9,819 nt of DNA from a virus (Duplodnaviria; Heunggongvirae; Uroviricota; Caudoviricetes): the IMG/VR virus record IMGVR_UViG_2645727743_000024; one strand, 5' to 3'. Position 1 is the stretch's first letter, and each line of letters begins with the position of its first letter. Under the pieces are notes generated by a model. It was given only the letters and a program-made list of their open reading frames with translations, did not search any database and had not been told where the DNA came from. The position numbers and the translations under genes are program-made. Shown one piece after another: positions 1 through 9,819 of this stretch.

Positions 1-168
1 GAAATGCTGAAAATTAATCCACAAATTACCGAAATGGTAGCTAAATACGCTGGGTGTTCTGTAGAAGAAGTAGAACGATGTGTTGAAAAATATTTTTCTC
101 CTTCTTCTCCGTCTACACCTTCCATTAATGAATTAATCAAATTAAAAGCTAAGGAGATTACTAAATGA
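1..168 (+). CDS. 3' end of an upstream gene (partial, start lies left of the window); probably a head-morphogenesis gene by position, function not determinable
   Basis: Frame 1 is open from base 1 for 55 codons and ends at TGA 166-168, overlapping the next ATG (165-167) in an ATGA arrangement typical of translationally coupled phage head genes. No start is visible, so it is absent from the ORF track. Confidence 0.35.
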   Translation, partial: EMLKINPQITEMVAKYAGCSVEEVERCVEKYFSPSSPSTPSINELIKLKAKEITK

Positions 169-527
169 TTATTGATTTAGACACTCTGTTTCCAGTTCGA
201 AAGACTTTCACAGATATTGTAAGTTATTGTACTGATCCGTTTGCCTCTGTAGAAAACAAGGTTTTTGCTTCTCTTCCTGCTGATGTTGAGTGCGGCGACT
301 TGATCACCAGCACGGGCGCTAAATATGAATCAGGAGATGATATCTATGTTGTTATGAGTGAATTTGTAACGGCTGGAGCAAACAAGCCTGTAGATGTTTT
401 ACGTAGCAATGCTGGCCTTGTGTGCATCAAAGCTGATGCGCTGAATGCTGTAAGTGAAGCAGCAAAAACAGCATTAATTAAAAAAGGCTTCCAGCTTGAA
501 GGCTTTAATACGGTTTTCACTTCTTAA
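165..527 (+). CDS. hypothetical phage head protein (possible decoration or head accessory protein by position, directly upstream of the major capsid gene)
   Basis: 120-aa ORF with AAGGAG at 151-156, 8 nt before ATG 165; stop TAA 525-527 lies 18 nt before the capsid gene. Position mirrors lambda D before E, but I see no convincing sequence similarity to gpD. Confidence 0.6.
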   Translation: MIIDLDTLFPVRKTFTDIVSYCTDPFASVENKVFASLPADVECGDLITSTGAKYESGDDIYVVMSEFVTAGANKPVDVLRSNAGLVCIKADALNAVSEAAKTALIKKGFQLEGFNTVFTS

Positions 528-545
528 TAAAAGGAATAATAATAA

Positions 546-1574
546 ATGATTCTAGGTAATGATTACGTTGATTTAGCTCCTCTGTTCTCTGCGCATAGCA
601 CTAGAAACTATCTGCTTTCTACTCTCGACTTCACTGATTCTGTAGGGGTTACATCTCATAAAGTAGCTGTTTCCCAGCTTGTCGAAAGCAACGAATCTCT
701 CTTTAACAAAGAGACAAGCCGTTTTAGTTCTGAACACAACGTTACTAAGCGAGAACAAGGTAAAGAATGGCTGATTGAAATCCCGTATTTTCTTCGTGAA
801 GATGTGATCCGTCCTTCTGATGTTCAAGGCAAACGTAAGCCAGGCACTGATTTTCAGGAAACACTCACTGATATCTATGCGGAATATATCGCTAAACACA
901 ATGTTGCATTCCAGCGTACTAAAGAGAGCGTGTTGGCGGCTTCTTTGTTCTCTGGCAAAACTTACACGCCTAAAACTGATGATGTGTTAATTGAGTGGGG
1001 CAAGCTGTTTAATGTGACACCTATGAAAGCCACTGTGACCGCTTCCAGCACTGACACCACGAAGATTTTTAAAGAATTTGATCAGATTGCTACGAATATT
1101 ATCGACAGAGCACAAAGCCAGGCGTCAGCGGTAGAGCGTATTGTTGTTTTCTGTAAGCCGGAAGCCTTCTCTGCAATTCGATTCTCTGCGGGTATGGCAA
1201 ACGCATTCCAGTATGTAAGCCCACTGGAAGAGGGGAACGTTGTGTATCAGCGTCGTGACCTGCTGCCAGGGGTGACAGCGTTCACTATTCCAGGAACTAA
1301 CATTGATGTTGTTAAACTGGTAGATCCGCTACACCTTGCACATATGACCGCTGACGCTGTAGCTGTGCCTAAATTCTCTAAGGGTAGCGGAATTTATACC
1401 AATATCTTCGGGGCTGCTTCCAGCACCTTTGAACTGATTAATGCCGCTCCTGCTGAGGTGTACAGCTATAGCTATGAATCTTCTCGTGGTGATGCTGTTA
1501 ACGTTGTTACAGAGAATAGCCAGATGGTTGTAAACCACGGCGTTGGCTTCTCAGTTCAAATCACTGTAAAATAA
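546..1574 (+). CDS. major capsid protein, lambda gpE-like (Phage_cap_E family)
   Basis: 342 aa, close to lambda gpE (341 aa). Recalled gpE-like stretches: APLF, HKVAVSQL (gpE EKVYLSQI) and IVVFCKPEAFSAIRF (gpE IIVFDPKGWALFRSF). AAGGA at 531-535 precedes the ATG; a strong terminator follows. Confidence 0.8.
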   Translation: MILGNDYVDLAPLFSAHSTRNYLLSTLDFTDSVGVTSHKVAVSQLVESNESLFNKETSRFSSEHNVTKREQGKEWLIEIPYFLREDVIRPSDVQGKRKPGTDFQETLTDIYAEYIAKHNVAFQRTKESVLAASLFSGKTYTPKTDDVLIEWGKLFNVTPMKATVTASSTDTTKIFKEFDQIATNIIDRAQSQASAVERIVVFCKPEAFSAIRFSAGMANAFQYVSPLEEGNVVYQRRDLLPGVTAFTIPGTNIDVVKLVDPLHLAHMTADAVAVPKFSKGSGIYTNIFGAASSTFELINAAPAEVYSYSYESSRGDAVNVVTENSQMVVNHGVGFSVQITVK

Positions 1575-1592
1575 TATTTTAACGTGTAATAG

Positions 1593-1627
1593 AGGCGTGG
1601 CGTGTATTCACGCTTCGCCTTTTTTTA
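1593..1627 (+). terminator. rho-independent terminator downstream of the major capsid gene
   Basis: Stem 1593-1604 pairs with 1609-1620 (12 positions, one T-T mismatch and one G-T wobble), 4-nt loop TATT, then TTTTTTT at 1621-1627. Confidence 0.6.
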
Positions 1628-1659
1628 TTTATTTTTAAATTTTGAGAGGTGATTAAAAT

Positions 1660-1863
1660 ATGGAAGTGATTTTGAAATCAAAAAATGGTGTACACGTACA
1701 TTTAGATGCTAATGATTCTAGAGGCTTGTTAAATCTGAAATATCTATGTTCTCTTTTAGATGTTCCCTATGAAGGAGTAAAAGCCCGTATGTTCAGACTA
1801 AACGAGAGTATTGATCAGGCTCTACACCATTTCTTAAGCAAAGAAGGTGGTAAAAATGATTAA
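1660..1863 (+). CDS. hypothetical small protein (67 aa), first gene of a three-gene cassette
   Basis: ATG 1660 preceded by GAGAGGTGA (1644-1652); stop 1861-1863 lies 14 nt before the next gene's ATG. No recognisable motif. Confidence 0.5.
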   Translation: MEVILKSKNGVHVHLDANDSRGLLNLKYLCSLLDVPYEGVKARMFRLNESIDQALHHFLSKEGGKND

Positions 1864-1877
1864 TAAGGGGATTTTAA

Positions 1878-3707
1878 ATGTTAGAAATTAACACTTCTAA
1901 AATTAAGAACACAGTAACATTTAGTGTAGATAAAGACAGCTTGAAAAAAGCGAAAGACTCTATTACAGGCTTAAAGGAATTCGCAGAAAATATCAAGCCA
2001 GCTAAATTGAGATTTGATAGTGTCACTAAAGGCTATAAGAAAGCACAAAGTGAAGTAGACAAGATTGCTCAACAGAAAGCTAAAACAGAAAAACAGAATC
2101 AAAGAGCACAAGCTGCCGCAGCAAGAGCACAGGCAAGGCAACAGCAACAAATAGCAGCACGTAAGGAGAAAGCTGAACTAAAGCTTTTAGACGTTGGATC
2201 AAGCATTAGTGCAATGCACCGCCTCTCTGTAGCGGAACAATATAAAGCTATTGCACAGGCTAGAGAGATAGCCAAACAATATGAGCAAGGGGCTATCTCG
2301 CTTGCACGTATGAATAGCCAGATGAAACGCCTACAACAGCAACAACGTAAGATTAATGGCAATAGAAAAGCACAATTAGCCCCCGTTAAGGGAGGATCAG
2401 GGAATTCCGCCACTATGGGCGCTCTGTTATTTGGAGGCGCTACGGCTGCCGCTGGCGTGATGGCTATGAATAAAGCAAATGAATTCGTTACTAATAGTTT
2501 TGCCAATGCTGAGACACAAGGAGAATTAATCCAACGTGCAAGGCTTGGCGGTGTAGACGTTAACCAGATGTATAATATTACAGAATGGGCGTATAGAAAC
2601 GGCGTTGACTCTATGATGGGGGATCAAGGGGCTAGGAAATACCTGGATCAGATGAAAGATGTTAGGGAACGTGCCGCAAAATCCTATAGTGAAGCTGAAT
2701 TAGTGAAAGACAAGAAAACCGGAAAATCTGAATGGAAAGGCGGTGATAACGCTATTAATGAACTTCTAAACATTGGAGTTATTAACAAAAGCGACCTTAA
2801 AAAATTTGCTGATAATCCAGCCGGATTAATTTCTAAGGCTGTTAATGGAATGATGAAAAAAGGGTTTTCAGATTCTCAAATTGGACAACGTTTAGAAGAC
2901 CTGGGCGATGATTTGATGCTTACATCAAAATATTGGCAACGTTCCGTTAAAGATGTACAAGAAAGTATTAATCAGCAAAAAGCCTCTGGAAAATGGCTAA
3001 CAGAAACACAGCAAGACTCTATTGTTAAATTCAGAGAACTAAACAGACAGCTTTCACAGCTTTCTGATGCAAGACAAGTAGCATTCGTAGACGGCTTTAT
3101 GAAATCTCTTGATCCAAAAGTAACGGAAGAGTTTATGAAAAACCTTTCTAATCTCACTCCGTATTTTACGAAGCTAGGGGAAGCTGTAGGAAGTCTCTTT
3201 GAGGCTATTATGAAGATTGTAAACTGGTTTAATCGTAATGATGATAAGACAGATGCTATTCAGAAAAATTTAGGTGATGCACCGCCTTTGAGTAATGAAG
3301 GGATGAAACAGCATCTTTCTAATCTCGTTCCTGACCAATATAAAGGCGCTGGCACTGCAACAACTACACCTGATAATAGTCATTCTCTATTTAATACGAT
3401 TAAGGGATTGCTTTTCGATGATAATTCTTCTGTGTCAGATGTAAAAATGTCAGTCAGCGAAGCACCGATAACCAATCTCAAACAGGGTGCTTTAAATAAT
3501 CTTGCAATGACAACTCCGGCTTATAATTTATCTCCTGTATTCAATCTGAATCCTACATTTGAAGTGGTAACGGAGGTTCCGCTTACTATTAATTCTGACA
3601 CATCCAGATTAAGCGATTATGTGGATTTTACAGCGAGAGCAAGTCGGGATAGCTTCTTGAAATCATTAACATTAACCAGCTTATCAGGACAATCTAACGG
3701 CGGGTAA
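1878..3707 (+). CDS. hypothetical 609-aa protein with Gln/Ala-rich coiled-coil region and a Gly/Ala-rich hydrophobic segment; possibly a virion internal, ejection or tape-measure-like protein
   Basis: RBS AAGGGG 1865-1870, 7 nt before ATG 1878. Residues about 55-160 are Q/A/K/R-rich heptad-like (AQQKAKTEKQNQRAQAAAARAQARQQQQIAARKEKAELK); residues about 170-197 GGSGNSATMGALLFGGATAAAGVMAM look membrane-spanning; the C-terminal third is S/T/N-rich. Function is inferred from architecture only. Confidence 0.75.
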   Translation: MLEINTSKIKNTVTFSVDKDSLKKAKDSITGLKEFAENIKPAKLRFDSVTKGYKKAQSEVDKIAQQKAKTEKQNQRAQAAAARAQARQQQQIAARKEKAELKLLDVGSSISAMHRLSVAEQYKAIAQAREIAKQYEQGAISLARMNSQMKRLQQQQRKINGNRKAQLAPVKGGSGNSATMGALLFGGATAAAGVMAMNKANEFVTNSFANAETQGELIQRARLGGVDVNQMYNITEWAYRNGVDSMMGDQGARKYLDQMKDVRERAAKSYSEAELVKDKKTGKSEWKGGDNAINELLNIGVINKSDLKKFADNPAGLISKAVNGMMKKGFSDSQIGQRLEDLGDDLMLTSKYWQRSVKDVQESINQQKASGKWLTETQQDSIVKFRELNRQLSQLSDARQVAFVDGFMKSLDPKVTEEFMKNLSNLTPYFTKLGEAVGSLFEAIMKIVNWFNRNDDKTDAIQKNLGDAPPLSNEGMKQHLSNLVPDQYKGAGTATTTPDNSHSLFNTIKGLLFDDNSSVSDVKMSVSEAPITNLKQGALNNLAMTTPAYNLSPVFNLNPTFEVVTEVPLTINSDTSRLSDYVDFTARASRDSFLKSLTLTSLSGQSNGG

Positions 3708-3741
3708 TTCCCGCCATAACATTACAAGGAAAATTATTATT

Positions 3742-4455
3742 ATGGCGACCGCCGGGATTTTAACCATACGTGCAGCAAATACTCCAGAACAACACGTTCA
3801 GGCTGTTTACAAAGCAGAACAAGATATAAACTCTACAAAAAACGAAAATAGCAAAGCTAATAAAACAAAAGGAGAGAATGGTTTTGCTATTGTTACCAGT
3901 GGGCTGGCTTCTTCTGGCAATGATGTTTATGAAAATTATATGGCACTGGCTTTTGACAGTGTTGACGATGTGAACGTGAGACGTTCGGCAGATGTTACAA
4001 GCTACCCCGTAGAAAATGGTGCTACTGTGTCTGATCACGTTCAAATTAAAAACAATAAGTTTTCTCTTAAAGGAAGGATCACTGAAACACCGATTAAAAG
4101 CGATCCTGGCTTGTTAAAGAGTGCAGGGGTGAACGGGAACAGAAGATCATTAGCAATTGATTATCTGAATCAGATTATGGACAGTAGACAGCCTTTTCTT
4201 CTTGTTACAGAAAATAAAACTTTTGAGAACGTTGTTTTAACAGGCATCGAATACACAGAAGAGGCAAGCGAATCCCTGGTATTTGATCTTAGCTTTGAGC
4301 AGATCAGGCTCGTTTCGTATGGCACTGTAAACACTGTAGCTATCAAAACACAGCCATCTAAGAACATCGGGGCGAATATGAAAAAACGTGTTAACACTGA
4401 AAAATCAAGTAGTGAAGGTGAAGACACTATTACTCCTGCCTTTAAACAGGAATAG
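3742..4455 (+). CDS. hypothetical 237-aa protein, third gene of the cassette
   Basis: RBS AAGGA 3726-3730 before ATG 3742; the N-terminal about 60 aa are K/N/E-rich low complexity, the rest has alternating hydrophobic and polar stretches. No recognisable catalytic motif. Confidence 0.7.
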   Translation: MATAGILTIRAANTPEQHVQAVYKAEQDINSTKNENSKANKTKGENGFAIVTSGLASSGNDVYENYMALAFDSVDDVNVRRSADVTSYPVENGATVSDHVQIKNNKFSLKGRITETPIKSDPGLLKSAGVNGNRRSLAIDYLNQIMDSRQPFLLVTENKTFENVVLTGIEYTEEASESLVFDLSFEQIRLVSYGTVNTVAIKTQPSKNIGANMKKRVNTEKSSSEGEDTITPAFKQE

Positions 4456-4495
4456 CCGTAAACGCCCCTAAAACGCTCTGTAACGATGTAATTAT

Positions 4496-4530
4496 AAAAG
4501 AGGCTACCAATCTATATTGAGGCCTCTTTA
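4496..4530. terminator. hairpin between convergent genes (possible bidirectional terminator)
   Basis: AAAAGAGGC (4496-4504) pairs with GCCTCTTTA (4522-4530) at 8 of 9 positions, but the loop is 17 nt and the flanking T-runs are weak. Confidence 0.25.
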
Positions 4531-4536
4531 TTGCGT

Positions 4537-5871
4537 CTATGGTGTTGTTTTACGCCTTAAATTTGATTTTTTATTGATTGATAAGCCTTTCTCTATTTCA
4601 GGGTAGCGTAGAAGCTCAATATATTTTTTAAGCTCTACTGGAGAAGCTGCATTCTTGCTATATGTGCGGAATGTCTCTGTATTGCCGCGTGTATGGCCCA
4701 GGAGAAGGGCGATCCTGTCTTCTGGAATTTGATTTCGATCAAGAAGCTGTGCTACTCCGTGTCTCAGAGAATGAAACACCTTCCTTTCTGTTCCCTTTTC
4801 CCCTAAAGCCTTTCGTTTAGCTCTTGTAAATCTCTGCGTGTGCCACGTGGAACGCTTACCATCAGCACGCTCTGTAATGCTGGCGTGATAGAACAAAAAG
4901 CCATTATGAGGCTTTTCACGCAGCGACAACACCAACGGAGTGATAAGGCTATGTACAGGCACAACACGTGCCGCAGCTTTCGTTTTTCCCTGTGTGATTT
5001 CAAAACACAGCACACCTTCGATCTCTTTCACATCGTCTATTGTGAGACTTGCTATCTCATTGATCCGCATACCTGTATATAAACCGATAAGACACAAAGC
5101 CATCATTTCTTTGTTTTCTGCTGAATTACCGGAAAATACTTGCAACACCTGCAATAGCTCTTTGTTAGAAAATGCCTCGTAGCTCTCTCTACTTTGTGCC
5201 ACATCAAGCCTATGCCCTCGCCAGGGGGAGAGCGCCCTTTCTGGCGCATCGTGGTAACGTGATGAAGCTAACTCCCATAGCTGGGCCATTGGGCTGATAT
5301 AATTTGCAATTGATTGTTGTGAAAGGGTTTTTTGCATGTGTTCTATCCAGCCTGTAACAGTGGTGCGGCTTACATCTTGCAATGCAATATCAGGCTTTTT
5401 ACGGTAGGAGAGAAACATCTCTACCGCTTTTCTTGCCTTAGCTAAAGTGGCTGGCTTCTTCTTCGTGCTGTTAATTGTCAGGTAGATTTCAAGAATTTTA
5501 AGCAATGACGGACACGAAGACGCTGTATCTTGCATTCTGGTAGCTGTTTTGGCGTATTTAGCCTTACTGCGTAACAGTTCCAGCGTGTTCTCTATTGTGC
5601 TGTTTACAGGAGCGACACTCTCCCGTAGACAATGGTATTCATCTGCAATCTGATCACGCTTTCTACGTGCAACACGAAGATTACTTGTGTGTAGACTTCT
5701 GACAAACGTCCTTTTTCCTTCAAAAAAGGGCTGCATATACACAGGCAGCGTGATCCTTAAATAGTAGTTACCGTAAGAATCACAGATTATGTATTGATTG
5801 GGCTTGTATCTCATAAACTCCCCGGCTAAAGTGTCGGAGCGTTTGTAATGTGAAAATTGATTGTAACGCAT
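4537..5871 (-). CDS. tyrosine recombinase / phage integrase
   Basis: 444-aa ORF with catalytic-domain motifs: Arg in TGMRINE, HSLRHG, LLGH and a C-terminal Tyr in RTYSK. ATG at 5871 has no Shine-Dalgarno; an in-frame ATG at 5814 (425 aa) has GGGGAG 3 nt upstream. The N-terminus does not resemble the P4-type arm-binding domain as I recall it. Confidence 0.85.
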   Translation of the reverse strand: MRYNQFSHYKRSDTLAGEFMRYKPNQYIICDSYGNYYLRITLPVYMQPFFEGKRTFVRSLHTSNLRVARRKRDQIADEYHCLRESVAPVNSTIENTLELLRSKAKYAKTATRMQDTASSCPSLLKILEIYLTINSTKKKPATLAKARKAVEMFLSYRKKPDIALQDVSRTTVTGWIEHMQKTLSQQSIANYISPMAQLWELASSRYHDAPERALSPWRGHRLDVAQSRESYEAFSNKELLQVLQVFSGNSAENKEMMALCLIGLYTGMRINEIASLTIDDVKEIEGVLCFEITQGKTKAAARVVPVHSLITPLVLSLREKPHNGFLFYHASITERADGKRSTWHTQRFTRAKRKALGEKGTERKVFHSLRHGVAQLLDRNQIPEDRIALLLGHTRGNTETFRTYSKNAASPVELKKYIELLRYPEIEKGLSINKKSNLRRKTTP

Positions 5872-5876
5872 AGAAA

Positions 5877-5906
5877 ATGATAATTTTTTCTATAAGATTC
5901 AATCAA
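5877..5906 (-). promoter_or_regulatory. candidate sigma70 promoter for the integrase
   Basis: On the - strand: TTGATT (5906-5901), 18-nt spacer, TATCAT (5882-5877). Predicted start falls near 5871, which would favour the 5814 start codon. AT-rich context makes chance matches likely. Confidence 0.2.
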
Positions 5907-5957
5907 TTAGTAATGGTCGTAGGTGATGGCATTAACACGAGATTAATCGAGTGTTTT

Positions 5958-5976
5958 ACTCCTATTATCGGCACCA
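5958..5976 (+). repeat. attachment-site core: 19-nt copy of the 3' end of tRNA-Thr (thrW type) without a tRNA body
   Basis: ACTCCTATTATCGGCACCA matches my recollection of the thrW 3' end (T-stem 3' half, acceptor 3' strand TATCGGC, discriminator A, CCA). Upstream sequence GTGTTTT does not continue the tRNA, and no GCCGATA 5' acceptor strand is present about 70 nt upstream. It lies between the integrase 5' end and the CP4-like module. Confidence 0.6.
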
Positions 5977-6255
5977 TTAAAATCAAATTGTTACGTAAGA
6001 TCTTATCATTCTCCCACCAAAAAATTATCTTAATGTAACAGCTGGTGTAAGTAAATTCTATCAACGAAGATCAATCTTATCTACTGACCAAAAAGGCCTG
6101 ATAGGGCTTCGCTCACTATACATCCTTGGCTGCAGGTTTAGTTGTACACCACTCCTAAATTTAATGTGTTGGCAATGTGTTCAATAAAGCTCGAACAAAT
6201 TAGCTCATTATGATCGGTTAATACTTCAACTTCTGGTTGCATGATTGTTTGTCCG

Positions 6256-6292
6256 TAAAAAGATAACGCGCCTGCCGGGTAGTAGCAGGCGC
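6256..6292 (-). terminator. candidate rho-independent terminator downstream of the toxin gene
   Basis: Perfect 8-bp stem GCGCCTGC (6268-6275) with GCAGGCGC (6285-6292), 9-nt loop; on the - strand followed by GTTATCTTTTTA, an interrupted T-run. Confidence 0.4.
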
Positions 6293-6357
6293 ATTACGCA
6301 ATAGGTAAACAAGGGAGGAAGTTCAGAAATGTAAATCGGGAAGGTTGTACGCAATGT

Positions 6358-7037
<680 letters not shown>

Positions 7038-7055
7038 TACAGTTCTCCACTATTG

Positions 7056-7277
7056 TCAGTTCAGGGTGATGCTCATCAGGCAGGTATAGGGCCCATTGCG
7101 GTCCTGGCGGCGTTCGGCGTATACCGCGAGGACTCCGGCGATATCCGGAACGTCCCTGCCGGTGTAATGACAGACGCTACCGTGCCACTGGTATTTGCCG
7201 GTGCAGTAGCGAAAGATTCGGGACTCAGGATGCTGGCGGTATATCGTCATTGCCCTGCGTTTACTGATAATTTTCAT
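7056..7277 (-). CDS. DUF987 family protein (YeeT/YkfH-like)
   Basis: 73 aa from ATG 7277 (MKIISKRRAMTIYRQHPESRIFRYCTGKYQWHG...), resembling recalled YeeT. GAGG lies 8 nt upstream. The track start at 7289 is a non-ATG (TTG) start overlapping the RadC-like stop. Confidence 0.7.
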   Translation of the reverse strand: MKIISKRRAMTIYRQHPESRIFRYCTGKYQWHGSVCHYTGRDVPDIAGVLAVYAERRQDRNGPYTCLMSITLN

Positions 7278-7285
7278 GTAATACC

Positions 7286-7762
7286 TCAAAGCAGACCGTG
7301 TTCTGCGAACGAATAGATTTGCCTGCCACCGACAATCAGATGGTCAGGGACACGGATATCCACCAGCTGAAGCACCTGAACCAGTCGCTGCGTGAGGGTT
7401 TTGTCGGCCTGGCTAGGTGTCGTCTCGCCGGAAGGATGGTTATGCGCGAGTATCACCGCCGCCGCGTTGAAGTGCAGAGCACGTTTGACCACCTCCCGGG
7501 GATGCACCTCGGTGCGGTTAATCGTGCCGGTGAAGAGCGTTTCATGGGCAATCAACTGATTCTGGTTGTCCAGATACAACACCCGGAACTCTTCCCGCTC
7601 AAGCGCGGCCATATGCAGTCGCAGCCATTCACGTACGGCGTGGGTAGAGGTGAAGGCTACGCCGGGCTCATGCAGGTGGCGGTCCAGAGCCCTGAGCGCC
7701 CGCTGAATGAGACGCCGGTCCTGTGGCGTCATCTCGCCGGGTAAAAAGGAAAGCTGTTTCAT
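7286..7762 (-). CDS. RadC-like JAB/JAMM-domain protein (YkfG/YeeS/YfjY family)
   Basis: 158 aa; HNHPSG motif (LAHNHPSGETTPS) and C-terminal DHLIVGGRQIYSFAEHGLL typical of the family; AGGAG precedes ATG 7762. Confidence 0.85.
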   Translation of the reverse strand: MKQLSFLPGEMTPQDRRLIQRALRALDRHLHEPGVAFTSTHAVREWLRLHMAALEREEFRVLYLDNQNQLIAHETLFTGTINRTEVHPREVVKRALHFNAAAVILAHNHPSGETTPSQADKTLTQRLVQVLQLVDIRVPDHLIVGGRQIYSFAEHGLL

Positions 7763-7777
7763 CTGTTGCTCCTTCGG

Positions 7778-8236
7778 TCAGTCGATAATACGCAGAATGG
7801 CGTGAGCCTCTGGATGTTGCATGGCATACTCCCGCAGGCGGTAATAGTGTGCGGTCATCGCGTCACATTCTGTACGGCAGGCATGGTGGCTATACGCAAT
7901 CAGGCAGACAGCAATACCTGCTGCTTCTGCACTCATTTGGGCATCGTTACCGTTCAGGCAGTTAAACAGACGCCATGTCTCATCGTTGTCAGGCTCGGGG
8001 GACATAAATGCGCCGCCATTGCTGAGGGTGTAGAACGACCAGATACCACCGCTGTAGCCCTCACAGAAGCGGTCCATCCAGGCGAAGATATGCGGCTCCA
8101 GGAGTAGCCACTGCGGGATAGCGCCAAAGTACTGTGGCCAGAAATCGATACGCTGTTCATCGGGGACCGGCGTGACGGTCAGTTCAAATTCGGGTTGGTT
8201 AGCGGGTGCGAGGTCGTGCTGCGTCTGTGTTATCAT
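7778..8236 (-). CDS. antirestriction protein, ArdB/KlcA family (YfjX/YafX-like)
   Basis: 152 aa from ATG 8236 (MITQTQHDLAPANQ...). The track ORF extends to 8449 but would overlap the upstream DUF905 gene; the internal ATG has GGAGA upstream and follows a terminator-like hairpin. Confidence 0.8.
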   Translation of the reverse strand: MITQTQHDLAPANQPEFELTVTPVPDEQRIDFWPQYFGAIPQWLLLEPHIFAWMDRFCEGYSGGIWSFYTLSNGGAFMSPEPDNDETWRLFNCLNGNDAQMSAEAAGIAVCLIAYSHHACRTECDAMTAHYYRLREYAMQHPEAHAILRIID

Positions 8237-8251
8237 GGGTATGTCTCCGTC

Positions 8252-8280
8252 AATAAAAACGCCAGCGGCGATGGCTGGCG
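8252..8280 (-). terminator. candidate rho-independent terminator between the DUF905 and antirestriction genes
   Basis: 7-bp stem CGCCAGC (8260-8266) with GCTGGCG (8274-8280), 7-nt loop; on the - strand followed by TTTTTATT (complement of 8252-8259). Confidence 0.45.
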
Positions 8281-8333
8281 TATGGGGATATAAAGTGTGT
8301 TCGGGGAGGTGAATGCGGGTAAATGCTTCGCGA

Positions 8334-8573
8334 TCAGCGGGTAGCCGTGTCTGTACGGATGCCTGAGGTGCGGATATAGCGGTTAAGACCTTCACCGGCA
8401 TCCGGCTCAAAGTTCCATGCCCGCCAGACCATCCGGCCTTCAGTATCACGAACCACCAGACGGAAGTGACTGCCCTGGTCGTCTTCGAGTGTGATATTGC
8501 TGTACGTGGTAGTGACCGCTTGCGCTTGTCTCCGGGTGAAAGGCCCCGGTGGCAGCAACACGGATTGGGTCAT
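8334..8573 (-). CDS. DUF905 family protein (YkfF-like)
   Basis: 79 aa from ATG 8573 ([66 protein letters not shown]...). AGGAG lies 7 nt upstream; the 150-aa track ORF is an N-terminal extension. Confidence 0.7.
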
Positions 8574-8588
8574 TTTCGGGCTCCTGAT

Positions 8589-8623
8589 AAAAGAAAACCC
8601 CGGCAGCCTGCTAGCTGTCGGGG
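8589..8623 (-). terminator. candidate rho-independent terminator downstream of the secreted-protein gene
   Basis: 9-bp stem CCCCGGCAG (8598-8606) with CTGTCGGGG (8615-8623), including one G-T wobble; 8-nt loop; on the - strand followed by TTTTCTTTT, then the DUF905 RBS. Confidence 0.45.
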
Positions 8624-8649
8624 TGGATTTGCTGGGGAAGATGCTACTA

Positions 8650-9117
8650 TCAGTCGTTGCTGCAGTCTCCGGGAGTGGACAGAACTTTCTCAGCGTTCTT
8701 CCGGTCCGCAGTGAAGGTCCCTGCTTTGTGGTCATTGACGTAGACGTCGAACTGCCCGGCCTCAGAGATATTGCTGATGAAGTCAAACCAGGCGTTATCG
8801 CCGTTACGCCAGCCCAGGCTGGACGGAATAATGTACTGCTGGTGATCCATCACTACGGTGATAGTAGTGTCGTCATCGTGCGAACTGACCATCTTGTCAT
8901 CGGCAAGGGTAAGAAAGACTGAATGCTGATAGAAACCATTCTGGTCCGGGTTCCCTGTGCAGTTGATGGTAAACGTCTTTCCGCTGGCTTCGGTCACGCT
9001 GTATTCCGTATTGCCCTGACCGTAACCCTGCTGCCAGAACCCCGGGATAGCAGAGGCATTAAAGCTCGCGAGCAGTACACCCGCCAGCATAAACCGACTT
9101 AGTGAAAGTATTGTCAT
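8650..9117 (-). CDS. secreted protein with N-terminal signal peptide (YkfB/YfjT-like)
   Basis: 155 aa; [23 protein letters not shown] looks like a Sec signal peptide with AxA cleavage site; AGGAGA lies about 6 nt before ATG 9117. Confidence 0.75.
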
Positions 9118-9139
9118 TCTTGTCTCCTTTGTCGTTGTT

Positions 9140-9583
9140 TTATTCCTGATTGTCAGGGTTTGAGGGTATCAGCAGTCGCCCCATCAGTTTGCCGTCATGG
9201 GCGTACTCAAAGTATTTTTCTTTGGTATACGGGTCCGTCACCTCCTGGTATTCCAGTTTGATGTTATCGGCAATACACAGCGCATTCATCAGTGGCTGGA
9301 CGGTTTTTTCCTGCATATCCACGAGGTAGTAGTAACTGCCATCCTCGCAGCCATCGGGCGACTGGCGGGTACGTAAAACCTGCAAGGTGGGACCGGATAA
9401 GTAGTCAACCTGTGACCATTCTTCGCTGACATCATCCTGGTGGCTGACCACATCACTGAAACGCGGTGGGGTGAGGTCCTTAAATTTACTGATGGCCTTC
9501 AGGTCATCACTTCTGTCATCGCATGCGATGAGAAACAGAGTGGTGGCAACCAGCGCCAGCAGAGGCAGTGTTTTACGTTTCAT
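9140..9583 (-). CDS. lipoprotein (YafY/YfjS-like), predicted inner-membrane retained
   Basis: 147 aa; signal peptide plus lipobox LIAC followed by Asp at +2 (Lol avoidance signal). Its ATG (9581-9583) overlaps the upstream gene's TAA stop (TAATG). Confidence 0.8.
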   Translation of the reverse strand: MKRKTLPLLALVATTLFLIACDDRSDDLKAISKFKDLTPPRFSDVVSHQDDVSEEWSQVDYLSGPTLQVLRTRQSPDGCEDGSYYYLVDMQEKTVQPLMNALCIADNIKLEYQEVTDPYTKEKYFEYAHDGKLMGRLLIPSNPDNQE

Positions 9584-9819
9584 TATTTTTTTCCTGAAAT
9601 CAGACGAACCACTTTGGCAAAGACATAAATGCCCACGAAAATACCCACCGGCACGCCGACGAACGGTGTCAGCGCGACACTGGCAGCACCGGCTGCGCCA
9701 CCTCCCGTCAGCAGTGCGGCAACAGTGGCAAGGGTCAGGGCCGCGAGACTGTCGGACACCCCGGTTTTGTTCAGAATGATGACGATGACAACAATGGCGA
9801 TAATGGCAATAACGGGCAT
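9583..9819 (-). CDS. small hydrophobic membrane protein; its ATG coincides with the window edge, so it may be N-terminally truncated
   Basis: 78 aa with two hydrophobic, Gly/Ala-rich predicted transmembrane segments; stop overlaps the start of the lipoprotein gene, suggesting translational coupling. Confidence 0.5.
   Translation of the reverse strand: MPVIAIIAIVVIVIILNKTGVSDSLAALTLATVAALLTGGGAAGAASVALTPFVGVPVGIFVGIYVFAKVVRLISGKK

Follow-up and report, generated by a model that had tools for sequence, protein, structure and literature searches.

A family of integrated islands in Enterobacterales, probable satellites of virulent phi92-like myoviruses

Several kinds of phage satellite have been described from bacterial chromosomes. 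The subject here is IMG/VR record IMGVR_UViG_2645727743_000024, a stretch of 9,819 nucleotides that in its entirety is called the window below. Positions 1-5980 of the window are the right half of a mobile island of about 12.8 kb, located in the thrW tRNA gene. The island belongs to a conserved family of integrative replicons of roughly 12-13 kb in Enterobacterales. Members of this family are probably satellites, or hyperparasites, of virulent phi92-like myoviruses (Stephanstirmvirinae).

Phage-inducible chromosomal islands that form capsids (cfPICIs) have a full set of genes for head and packaging (terS/terL, portal, protease, adaptor, connector) and none for tails, and use temperate helpers (PMC10085698). 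The SatelliteFinder model for these elements has 11 core components, including terL, portal, head-tail adaptor and connector, and it treats tail and holin genes as forbidden (PMC10085698). Like the cfPICIs, the island is a chromosomal element of some 10-15 kb that encodes an integrase, a replication module and a major capsid protein (MCP) of its own, which has the HK97 fold. Unlike them, it has this MCP without a portal or terminase, and it also has tail genes. It does not belong to the cfPICIs: of the core set only the MCP is present, and a homolog of a tape-measure protein (TMP) and a tube initiator violate the exclusion of tail genes.

P4-like satellites and the classical PICIs (chromosomal islands inducible by phage) are islands of around 11-15 kb that integrate in tRNA genes, in tandem at the same hotspots, and in this the island is like them. 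A P4-like element lies beside the island in one strain (L014), and Sp2 of strain Sakai is found at thrW. P4 and the PICIs remodel or redirect the capsids of their helpers however, where the island encodes an MCP and tail proteins. Scans with Pfam, PHROG and NCBIfam found no Sid, Psu, Delta, alpha-primase, CpmAB, AlpA, Stl, Pri-Rep, Ppi/Rpp or terS, which places the island outside both groups.

Satellites of strictly lytic phages are known in detail essentially only from Vibrio, where they are called PLE (elements resembling phage-inducible chromosomal islands) and PICMI (phage-inducible chromosomal minimalist islands). PLE is not known to encode homologs of virion proteins, and remodels the coat of phage ICP1 with TcaP.

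Among known systems, it is PLE that the island would seem to resemble most in how it works. Each is a small integrated island with a link to a virulent myovirus that has an E-type capsid, and each has an iteron origin with a dedicated initiator, the alleles of which covary with the origin. In both cases there is also a phage with a chimeric nuclease, in which the DNA-binding domain of the satellite initiator is joined to a T5orf172/GIY-YIG domain. In ICP1 this nuclease is Odn, which cuts the origin of PLE; it joins an N-terminus with 42% identity to PLE RepA_N to a T5orf172 domain (PMC8263062). The counterparts here are inny_184 and muut_154, which unlike Odn have two stacked Rep domains, at 89-100% identity.

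There are further differences. The integrase of the island is a tyrosine recombinase, that of PLE a large serine recombinase. The island initiator is HTH_36/DnaD-like, the PLE initiator is RepA_N. Unlike PLE, the island family has genes for an MCP and a TMP of its own and, in some members, for a tube initiator, and its hosts are Enterobacterales. No homology to PLE proteins was detected in profile scans; no direct comparison with PLE sequences was run. A PLE-like lifestyle, as satellite of a virulent phage, is suggested by structural homologs restricted to Stephanstirmvirinae and by the chimeras of Rep and nuclease.

The open-access literature and bioRxiv yielded no description of the island family, which is not proof that none exists. 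It looks like a new satellite family with a gene set without precedent, and like an undescribed kind of phage parasite.

Structural genes shared with phi92

The first-pass annotation of this DNA reported an E-like capsid gene, followed by three genes of unknown function and no tail genes before the integrase. It added that confident tail-protein matches for two of the three, coding for 609 and 237 amino acids, would remove the apparent deficit. Such matches exist for both. The capsid gene was correctly recognised, and of the three unknown genes only the smallest, encoding 67 amino acids, is still without a match.

The 609-aa protein (1878-3707, plus strand) is a TMP homolog. It matches PHROG 16051, 'tail length tape measure protein', with E=2e-53, and BLASTP aligns 475 aa of it to phi92 gp134 at 27% identity (E=2e-33). 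Over the N-terminal 66 aa the identity to gp134 is 55%, and the first 25 are nearly the same. Chain 21vq_V in the PDB, which is phi92 gp134, is matched with E=1.5e-37. With tblastn the protein finds 134 phage genomes, all of them phi92-like myoviruses of about 145-150 kb. Four 'Campylobacter phage' records of 146 kb (MG065639, MG065645, MG065656 and MG065689) give the same TMP scores as phi92-like phages of E. coli; these are probably mislabelled or contaminant Justusliebigvirus genomes.

The 237-aa protein (3742-4455, plus strand) is a tail-tube initiator, a Dit-like baseplate protein. It belongs to PF21821 Dit_like with 101.9 bits against a cutoff of 24.2 (E=3e-29), and is 60% identical to phi92 gp135 (E=2e-92). 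Its PDB matches are 21vq_N (2e-78), the phiTE tube initiator 9cuy and Pam3 gp17 7yfz. Both gp134 and gp135 are chains in 21vq, the solved entry for the phi92 tail and baseplate. Within the tube-initiator gene, 79 nt (3772-3850) are 91% identical to phage EC_OE_11. A megablast of positions 1-5976 against 50,697 phage genomes returned a single match of 79 nt, so this element is not a known phage.

The MCP is a protein of 342 aa (546-1574, plus strand) of the lambda-E or HK97-fold type. Residues 18-341 match PF03864 Phage_cap_E with 58.2 bits, above the cutoff of 22.9 (E=9e-16), which makes it a member of that family. PHROG 29 is matched with E=9e-17. Among PDB entries the capsid of Pakpunavirus P7-1 (9zbi, 7e-13) is somewhat nearer than phi92 gp124 (21uy, 1.6e-5), to which the MCP is 22% identical. 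Among 50,697 phage records, none exceeds about 26% identity.

In gene order, the 120-aa protein, MCP, 67-aa protein, TMP and tube initiator line up with phi92 gp123-124 and gp133-135. The three recognisable proteins are homologs of gp124 (22%), gp134 (27-55%) and gp135 (60%), in the same relative order. The intervening gp125-132 of phi92, which are connectors, sheath, tube and chaperone, have no counterpart in the island. Phi92 is a virulent phage of 148 kb and has the full morphogenetic set, of which only these genes are kept in the island.

The first gene of this series encodes the 120-aa protein (165-527, plus strand), an ORF (open reading frame) that is specific to the family. In Pfam, PHROG, NCBIfam and PDB there is no sequence match to it. 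The 91 homologs come from Enterobacterales without exception, each called 'hypothetical'. The gene holds the slot of the phi92 decoration protein gp123, to which sequence similarity is absent. An AlphaFold2 model of low confidence (pLDDT 61) has as its top Foldseek matches chains of around 124 aa from the Sf14 and Bas63 capsid maps. With E=0.03-0.1 these are not significant and are a hint only. It is possibly a capsid decoration or accessory protein, and the earlier description of the gene as a head protein is tentative.

The 67-aa protein (1660-1863, plus strand) is encoded immediately upstream of the TMP homolog. Every family member has a gene for 62-87 aa in this slot. No similarity to phi92 gp133, which has the equivalent position, was found. 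By position alone, it is possibly a chaperone.

The five structural genes have kept their ORF lengths and are under purifying selection, with ratios of nonsynonymous to synonymous substitution (dN/dS, Nei-Gojobori) of 0.04-0.21. Comparing the window with the copy in E. coli 100416 (L001), the ratio is 0.18 for the 120-aa protein (range 0.14-0.18), 0.19 for the MCP (range 0.11-0.19; 0.13 for a more distant pair), 0.06 for the 67-aa protein, 0.08 for the TMP (range 0.08-0.21; 0.21 for a more distant pair) and 0.04 for the tube initiator.

The complete element, its family and the phage nucleases

At about 96% identity, the window region is found in 242 of 5,426 complete E. coli genomes, with partial presence in 598. 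This variant is present in about 4% of complete E. coli genomes, and some match, partial ones included, in up to 14%. The window ends before the left arm of the element, and the replication features that follow were read from complete relatives.

In strain 100416 (L001), the element measures 12,772 bp between its attachment (att) repeats. The left arm holds a small serine recombinase, some 2.2 kb without ORFs, several small genes, and a 230-aa HTH_36 protein. This protein matches PHROG replication-initiator families (PHROG 270/428, best 6e-9) and is called Rep here. The ORF-free stretch contains five or six iterons of 21-22 nt (GGGGTAGGTCATAGTGAGCTA) and AT-rich blocks, which are hallmarks of a replication origin, in this case a predicted one.

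Iteron arrays in the family have the sequences TGGATGTAACGAGAGGTTACA, TACCCCTATCAAGTCTGA and ACCTAGGAAATGAGTTCCGATC. The dominant array changes with the Rep allele in L001, L014, L015 and L004. These complete relatives therefore have what is typical of PLE, an iteron origin with a covarying cognate initiator. The origin region of L001 (15530-16100) is in itself a mosaic: next to its own five or six iterons, it contains two-copy remnants of the types of other islands, namely ACCTAGGAAATGATTTCC (L004 type), GTAACGATATGTTACA (L015 type) and TACCCCTATC (L014 type).

Rep alleles with otherwise different sequences share a C-terminus ending in DFDIPF or D(S)(L/I)PF (L001 18419-18442, L015, L004/L005). 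This resembles the C-terminal tip of E. coli SSB, DFDDDIPF. The Rep C-terminus is possibly a mimic of the SSB tail that would recruit replisome proteins. The phage proteins inny_184 and muut_154 lack the SSB-like tail.

A GC-rich hairpin with a T-run is found 60-90 nt 5' of the first gene of the structural module, at 19863-19895 in L001, with equivalents in L004, L005 and L008. Its presence in diverged members suggests that the module is shielded from early-gene transcription, and needs a promoter of its own or antitermination, possibly dependent on the helper. A palindromic motif upstream of the module, GCAACN6GTTGTA, is missing from the structural region of phi92, so no shared late-promoter signal was found.

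The first-pass annotation had proposed annotating the whole element. In the complete copies the annotation, the ORF list and Pfam, PHROG and NCBIfam reveal no portal, terminase, protease, tube, sheath, baseplate wedge, fibre, holin or endolysin. There are hence no terminase, portal, protease or lysis genes to be found, and what is present is Rep and an iteron origin. Given that about 12.8 kb holds no further structural, packaging or lysis genes, the att-bounded element of 12,772 bp is not a complete temperate prophage. A phage with its tail genes upstream of its head genes, which the first-pass annotation offered as one alternative, is rejected on the same content. In PADLOC the structural proteins have no match, and the Rep-like protein has weak generic winged helix-turn-helix (wHTH) matches only. 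NCBIfam gave nothing useful for the structural genes.

The family is broader than this one variant. Members at thrW are L001, L004 (the O104:H4 strain 2011C-3493), L014 and L015. In E. coli 00_3230 (L005) the island is in a tRNA-Gly gene, has a different integrase and has no gene for the tube initiator. L008-L010 are from K. pneumoniae, where the cluster has 721 sequences, and L011 is from Serratia. The tube-initiator gene is accessory, since it is missing in L005, L008 and L011. MCP relatives in the protein database also come from Citrobacter, Enterobacter, Cronobacter, K. aerogenes and Sodalis. A TMP scan with one genome per species gave two loci only; taxonomic breadth is taken from the protein database.

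The TMP homolog of K. pneumoniae matches only the tape measures of Stephanstirmvirinae, at 40-42% identity (E=2e-85). In the O104:H4 copy the TMP homolog is 64% identical to that of the window, and the protein in the MCP position about 19%. In the tRNA-Gly copy these roles are reversed, with 75% for the MCP and 28% for the TMP homolog. Modules shuffle between family members. The protein in the MCP position of L004 (8958-9989, 343 aa) has a weak PHROG 29 match and no match in Pfam or in tblastn against phages. It is a putative second and very divergent capsid type within the family.

The phages themselves provide another line of evidence. When the left arm was compared with all phages by sensitive blastn, the Justusliebigvirus phages inny and muut matched it at 97-99% nucleotide identity, over a 55-aa gene of the island and the start of the Rep-like gene. 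The phage gene that follows is a chimera. The protein inny_184 (367 aa, L012 3233-4336) and the protein muut_154 (332 aa, L013 3232-4230) both consist of two HTH_36 winged helices and then a MUG113/T5orf172 domain.

Residues 1-162 of inny_184 are 96% identical to the N-terminus of Rep from the thrW island of E. coli C6, and its second wHTH is 89% identical to Rep of the O104:H4 island. For residues 1-122 of muut_154 the identity is 100%, in this case to the N-terminal part of Rep from the E. coli MLI104K2 island. The chimeras overall carry one or two such N-terminal DNA-binding domains, at 89-100% identity to island Rep alleles. The segments that code for these N-termini match 268-424 E. coli chromosomes at 90-99% nucleotide identity, inside islands of the family. 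The C-termini (MUG113/T5orf172, of the GIY-YIG superfamily) have relatives among the endonucleases that many large phages carry here and there. The complete chimera is found in only about three or four phages; three that encode such proteins are lytic Justusliebigvirus/Stephanstirmvirinae, while phi92, alia and VEcB lack it.

We infer that phages captured the DNA-binding domains of island Reps, in two cases stacking two specificities, and that these would aim a predicted nuclease at island origins. By analogy, inny_184 and muut_154 look like the E. coli phage counterpart of ICP1 Odn, with two stacked specificities. The 55-aa gene lies just upstream of Rep (L001 17531-17698), and is 99% identical at the nucleotide level to a muut/inny gene that precedes the gene of the chimeric nuclease. 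It may be a co-transferred partner or regulator.

Boundaries and neighbourhood

The right boundary of the element is the attR core at 5958-5980 (plus strand, ACTCCTATTATCGGCACCATTAA), a 23-bp copy of the 3' end of the tRNA-Thr gene thrW. A 21-mer of it had zero matches in 200 shuffles of the window. In complete copies, the 21-mer is present at both ends, in L001 at 13190-13210 and 25962-25982, with the spacing of 12,772 bp given above. The element is therefore in thrW with att repeats on either side, and the att site that the first-pass annotation had noticed is real. An Rfam scan found tRNA only.

The 10 bases GGTCGTAGGT at window positions 5916-5925 also match thrW, just upstream of the 23-bp core. 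Between the two there is an insert of 32 nt (window 5916-5980), and L001 25920-25984 has the same layout. The element thus comes with a longer, interrupted pseudo-copy of the 3' half of the tRNA.

Positions 1-5980 also form a block of low GC content, as had been noted on first reading. GC is 0.33-0.47 over 1-5750, compared to 0.50-0.58 rightward of 6250.

The integrase was likewise described correctly as facing inward. It is a tyrosine integrase on the minus strand (4537-5871), with matches to Pfam Phage_integrase (1.4e-17), DUF6538 and Phage_int_SAM_5 and to PHROG 1. RefSeq homologs are annotated as 425 aa, which puts the start near 5814. The L001 annotation calls it a tyrosine recombinase.

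At the other end, positions 1-168 (ORF 4-168, plus strand) are the 3' part of a small gene, 'g70'. In full it encodes 70 aa, at 19956-20168 in L001, and in the family around 65-74 aa. It precedes the capsid module throughout the family, and this position is kept in L004, L005, L008 and L011. Pfam, PHROG and element-wide profile scans gave no family match for it. A terminator-like hairpin with a T-run (GCCTTTTTTT) sits directly 3' of the capsid gene at 1592-1626 on the plus strand, and has a 9-bp stem with 5 GC pairs and a T-rich tail.

To the right of the att site, window 6358-9819 is the end of a CP4-6-like island on the minus strand. All genes named here are on that strand: the CbtA toxin (6358-6762), the CbeA antitoxin (6720-7037), a RadC-like ykfG homolog (7286-7762) and an antirestriction protein (7778-8449). 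Three of these are Pfam assignments, and the ykfG homolog was assigned by eye from its translation. There are further small genes, and a strong terminator-like hairpin is found at 6263-6297. In E. coli K-12 the toxin end of the CP4-6-like island lies directly beside thrW. With such an island to the right of att, the element was inserted in tandem at a known hotspot, and sits between thrW and the older CP4-6-like island.

Tandem arrays at thrW take other forms as well. In strain 100416 a lambdoid prophage follows the island (L001 25995-42000). In MLI104K2, P4-like genes (a DUF927 primase pseudogene and Ogr/Delta) are immediately upstream of it (L014 1-4533). The island is not Sp1 or Sp2 of O157 Sakai, also at thrW: Sp1 is lambda-like and Sp2 P4-like.

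What the islands may be

As satellites of phi92-like phages, the islands would operate as follows. Infection by such a phage would induce the island, which would excise using its integrase and replicate from the iteron origin with Rep and replisome parts of the host or helper. Capsid shell, tape measure and, in some members, tube initiator would then be made from the island's own genes, and the helper would supply portal, scaffold, protease, terminase, tube, sheath, baseplate and lysis. The resulting particles would carry the 12.8-kb genome. Assembly of the helper would be diverted or poisoned in the process, which would protect the host population. In response, phages would use the chimeric nuclease to cut the origin of the island, as ICP1 uses Odn on PLE.

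A more ambitious version is tentative, and we give it somewhat less than even chances. In it, this is the first satellite family with its own TMP, tube initiator and capsid shell without portal or terminase. In E. coli, Klebsiella and relatives, its proteins and those of virulent phi92-like helpers would be combined in chimeric virions. A PLE/ICP1-style arms race would be under way, with stacked Rep domains on a nuclease that destroys the satellite origin.

Quite a few observations weigh against the satellite reading. Its steps (induction, excision, replication, packaging, chimeric virions and interference) are deduced from genomes. No pac or cos site and no small terminase (terS) was recognised in the sequence of the element. 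The MCP is only 22% identical to that of phi92, which makes it uncertain that it co-assembles with the portal, scaffold and protease of the helper. Some other phage, not yet sequenced, could be the helper where the capsid is concerned. All IMG/VR matches are prophage-type calls from isolate genomes, none are virome particles, and they are silent on packaging. The reading also gives no reason for a satellite to have its own tape measure and tube initiator. Rep and origin of the present copy are predicted from complete copies that are 96% identical to it over 1-5976. The direction of transfer of the Rep domains is read from the chimeric architecture only. Finally, some copies are decaying, with insertion sequence (IS) elements or a frameshifted integrase. 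In MLI104K2 (L014 9704-10917 and 15833-17109) an IS3 truncates Rep and the integrase is frameshifted, and island copies in other strains have IS5 or IS600 insertions.

Some of these same observations would fit an unpackaged defence island, spread by generalised transduction or recombination. Its MCP, TMP and tube-initiator homologs would then be dominant-negative mimics that poison the capsid and tail assembly of phi92-like phages. The structural set is indeed incomplete, with no portal, terminase or pac site, and virome evidence is absent as the IMG/VR matches stem from isolate genomes. A mimic has to be much like its model, and the N-terminus of the TMP and the tube initiator are indeed close to the phage proteins; a counter-nuclease in phages indicates conflict, not mobilisation. 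Interference and mobilisation are compatible though, since PLE does both. Own integrases, different att sites, an iteron origin and Rep make up an amplifiable replicon typical of satellites, for which a static defence has no need. The MCP, at no more than 26% identity to known phage MCPs, is too divergent to be an obvious co-assembling poison, and PADLOC found no match. On balance a pure defence island is unlikely, at roughly one-third the weight that we give to satellites.

The two remaining explanations have far less going for them. The decay seen in some copies, the small size and the prophage junk next door at a known hotspot would suit a temperate phage in decay, which lost most of its head-tail region by deletion and stayed fixed at thrW through inheritance. 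The first-pass annotation had listed a deleted prophage among its alternatives. The same 'deletion' would then have to recur in copies with proteins that are only 19-75% identical, at thrW, in a tRNA-Gly gene and, in Klebsiella and Serratia, at sites that are not orthologous. The ORFs are intact with dN/dS of 0.04-0.21, and the nearest relatives of the tail genes are in strictly virulent phages of 145-150 kb that have no integrases. Because one minimal set, kept by purifying selection, recurs in several genera and at more than one att site, a deletion remnant is rejected, and we consider it very improbable.

A cfPICI-type satellite of temperate phages, with its own capsid and stealing only tails, was the preferred reading on first pass, and an island of some 13 kb with an MCP, an integrase and a replication module does bring it to mind. 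This too now has hardly any probability left. The island lacks genes for terL, portal, protease, head-tail adaptor and connector, and it has 'forbidden' tail genes (PMC10085698). Moreover, every phage link of the island is to virulent myoviruses: its phage relatives and antagonists are phi92-like, not temperate helpers. A satellite is still the best-supported class, so that part of the earlier idea survives. The form with its own capsid and borrowed tails does not, because without portal, protease, terminase and connectors the island alone cannot build a packaging-competent capsid, and it has two tail proteins.

If the islands are indeed satellites of phi92-like phages, E. coli and Klebsiella would have a widespread equivalent of the Vibrio systems, and the host that has been studied best would thereby offer a tractable model. 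Because current satellite finders count tail genes as forbidden (PMC10085698), islands of this kind would be missed systematically. An MCP without portal or terminase, in the company of a tape measure, challenges the view of which parts a satellite must bring.

The likely targets are Stephanstirmvirinae, such as phi92 and Phapecoctavirus, which are lytic phages of broad host range and are frequently isolated with therapeutic use in mind. Phage resistance and failed therapy could have an unrecognised cause in the islands, and the chimeric nuclease could mark the phages that overcome them.

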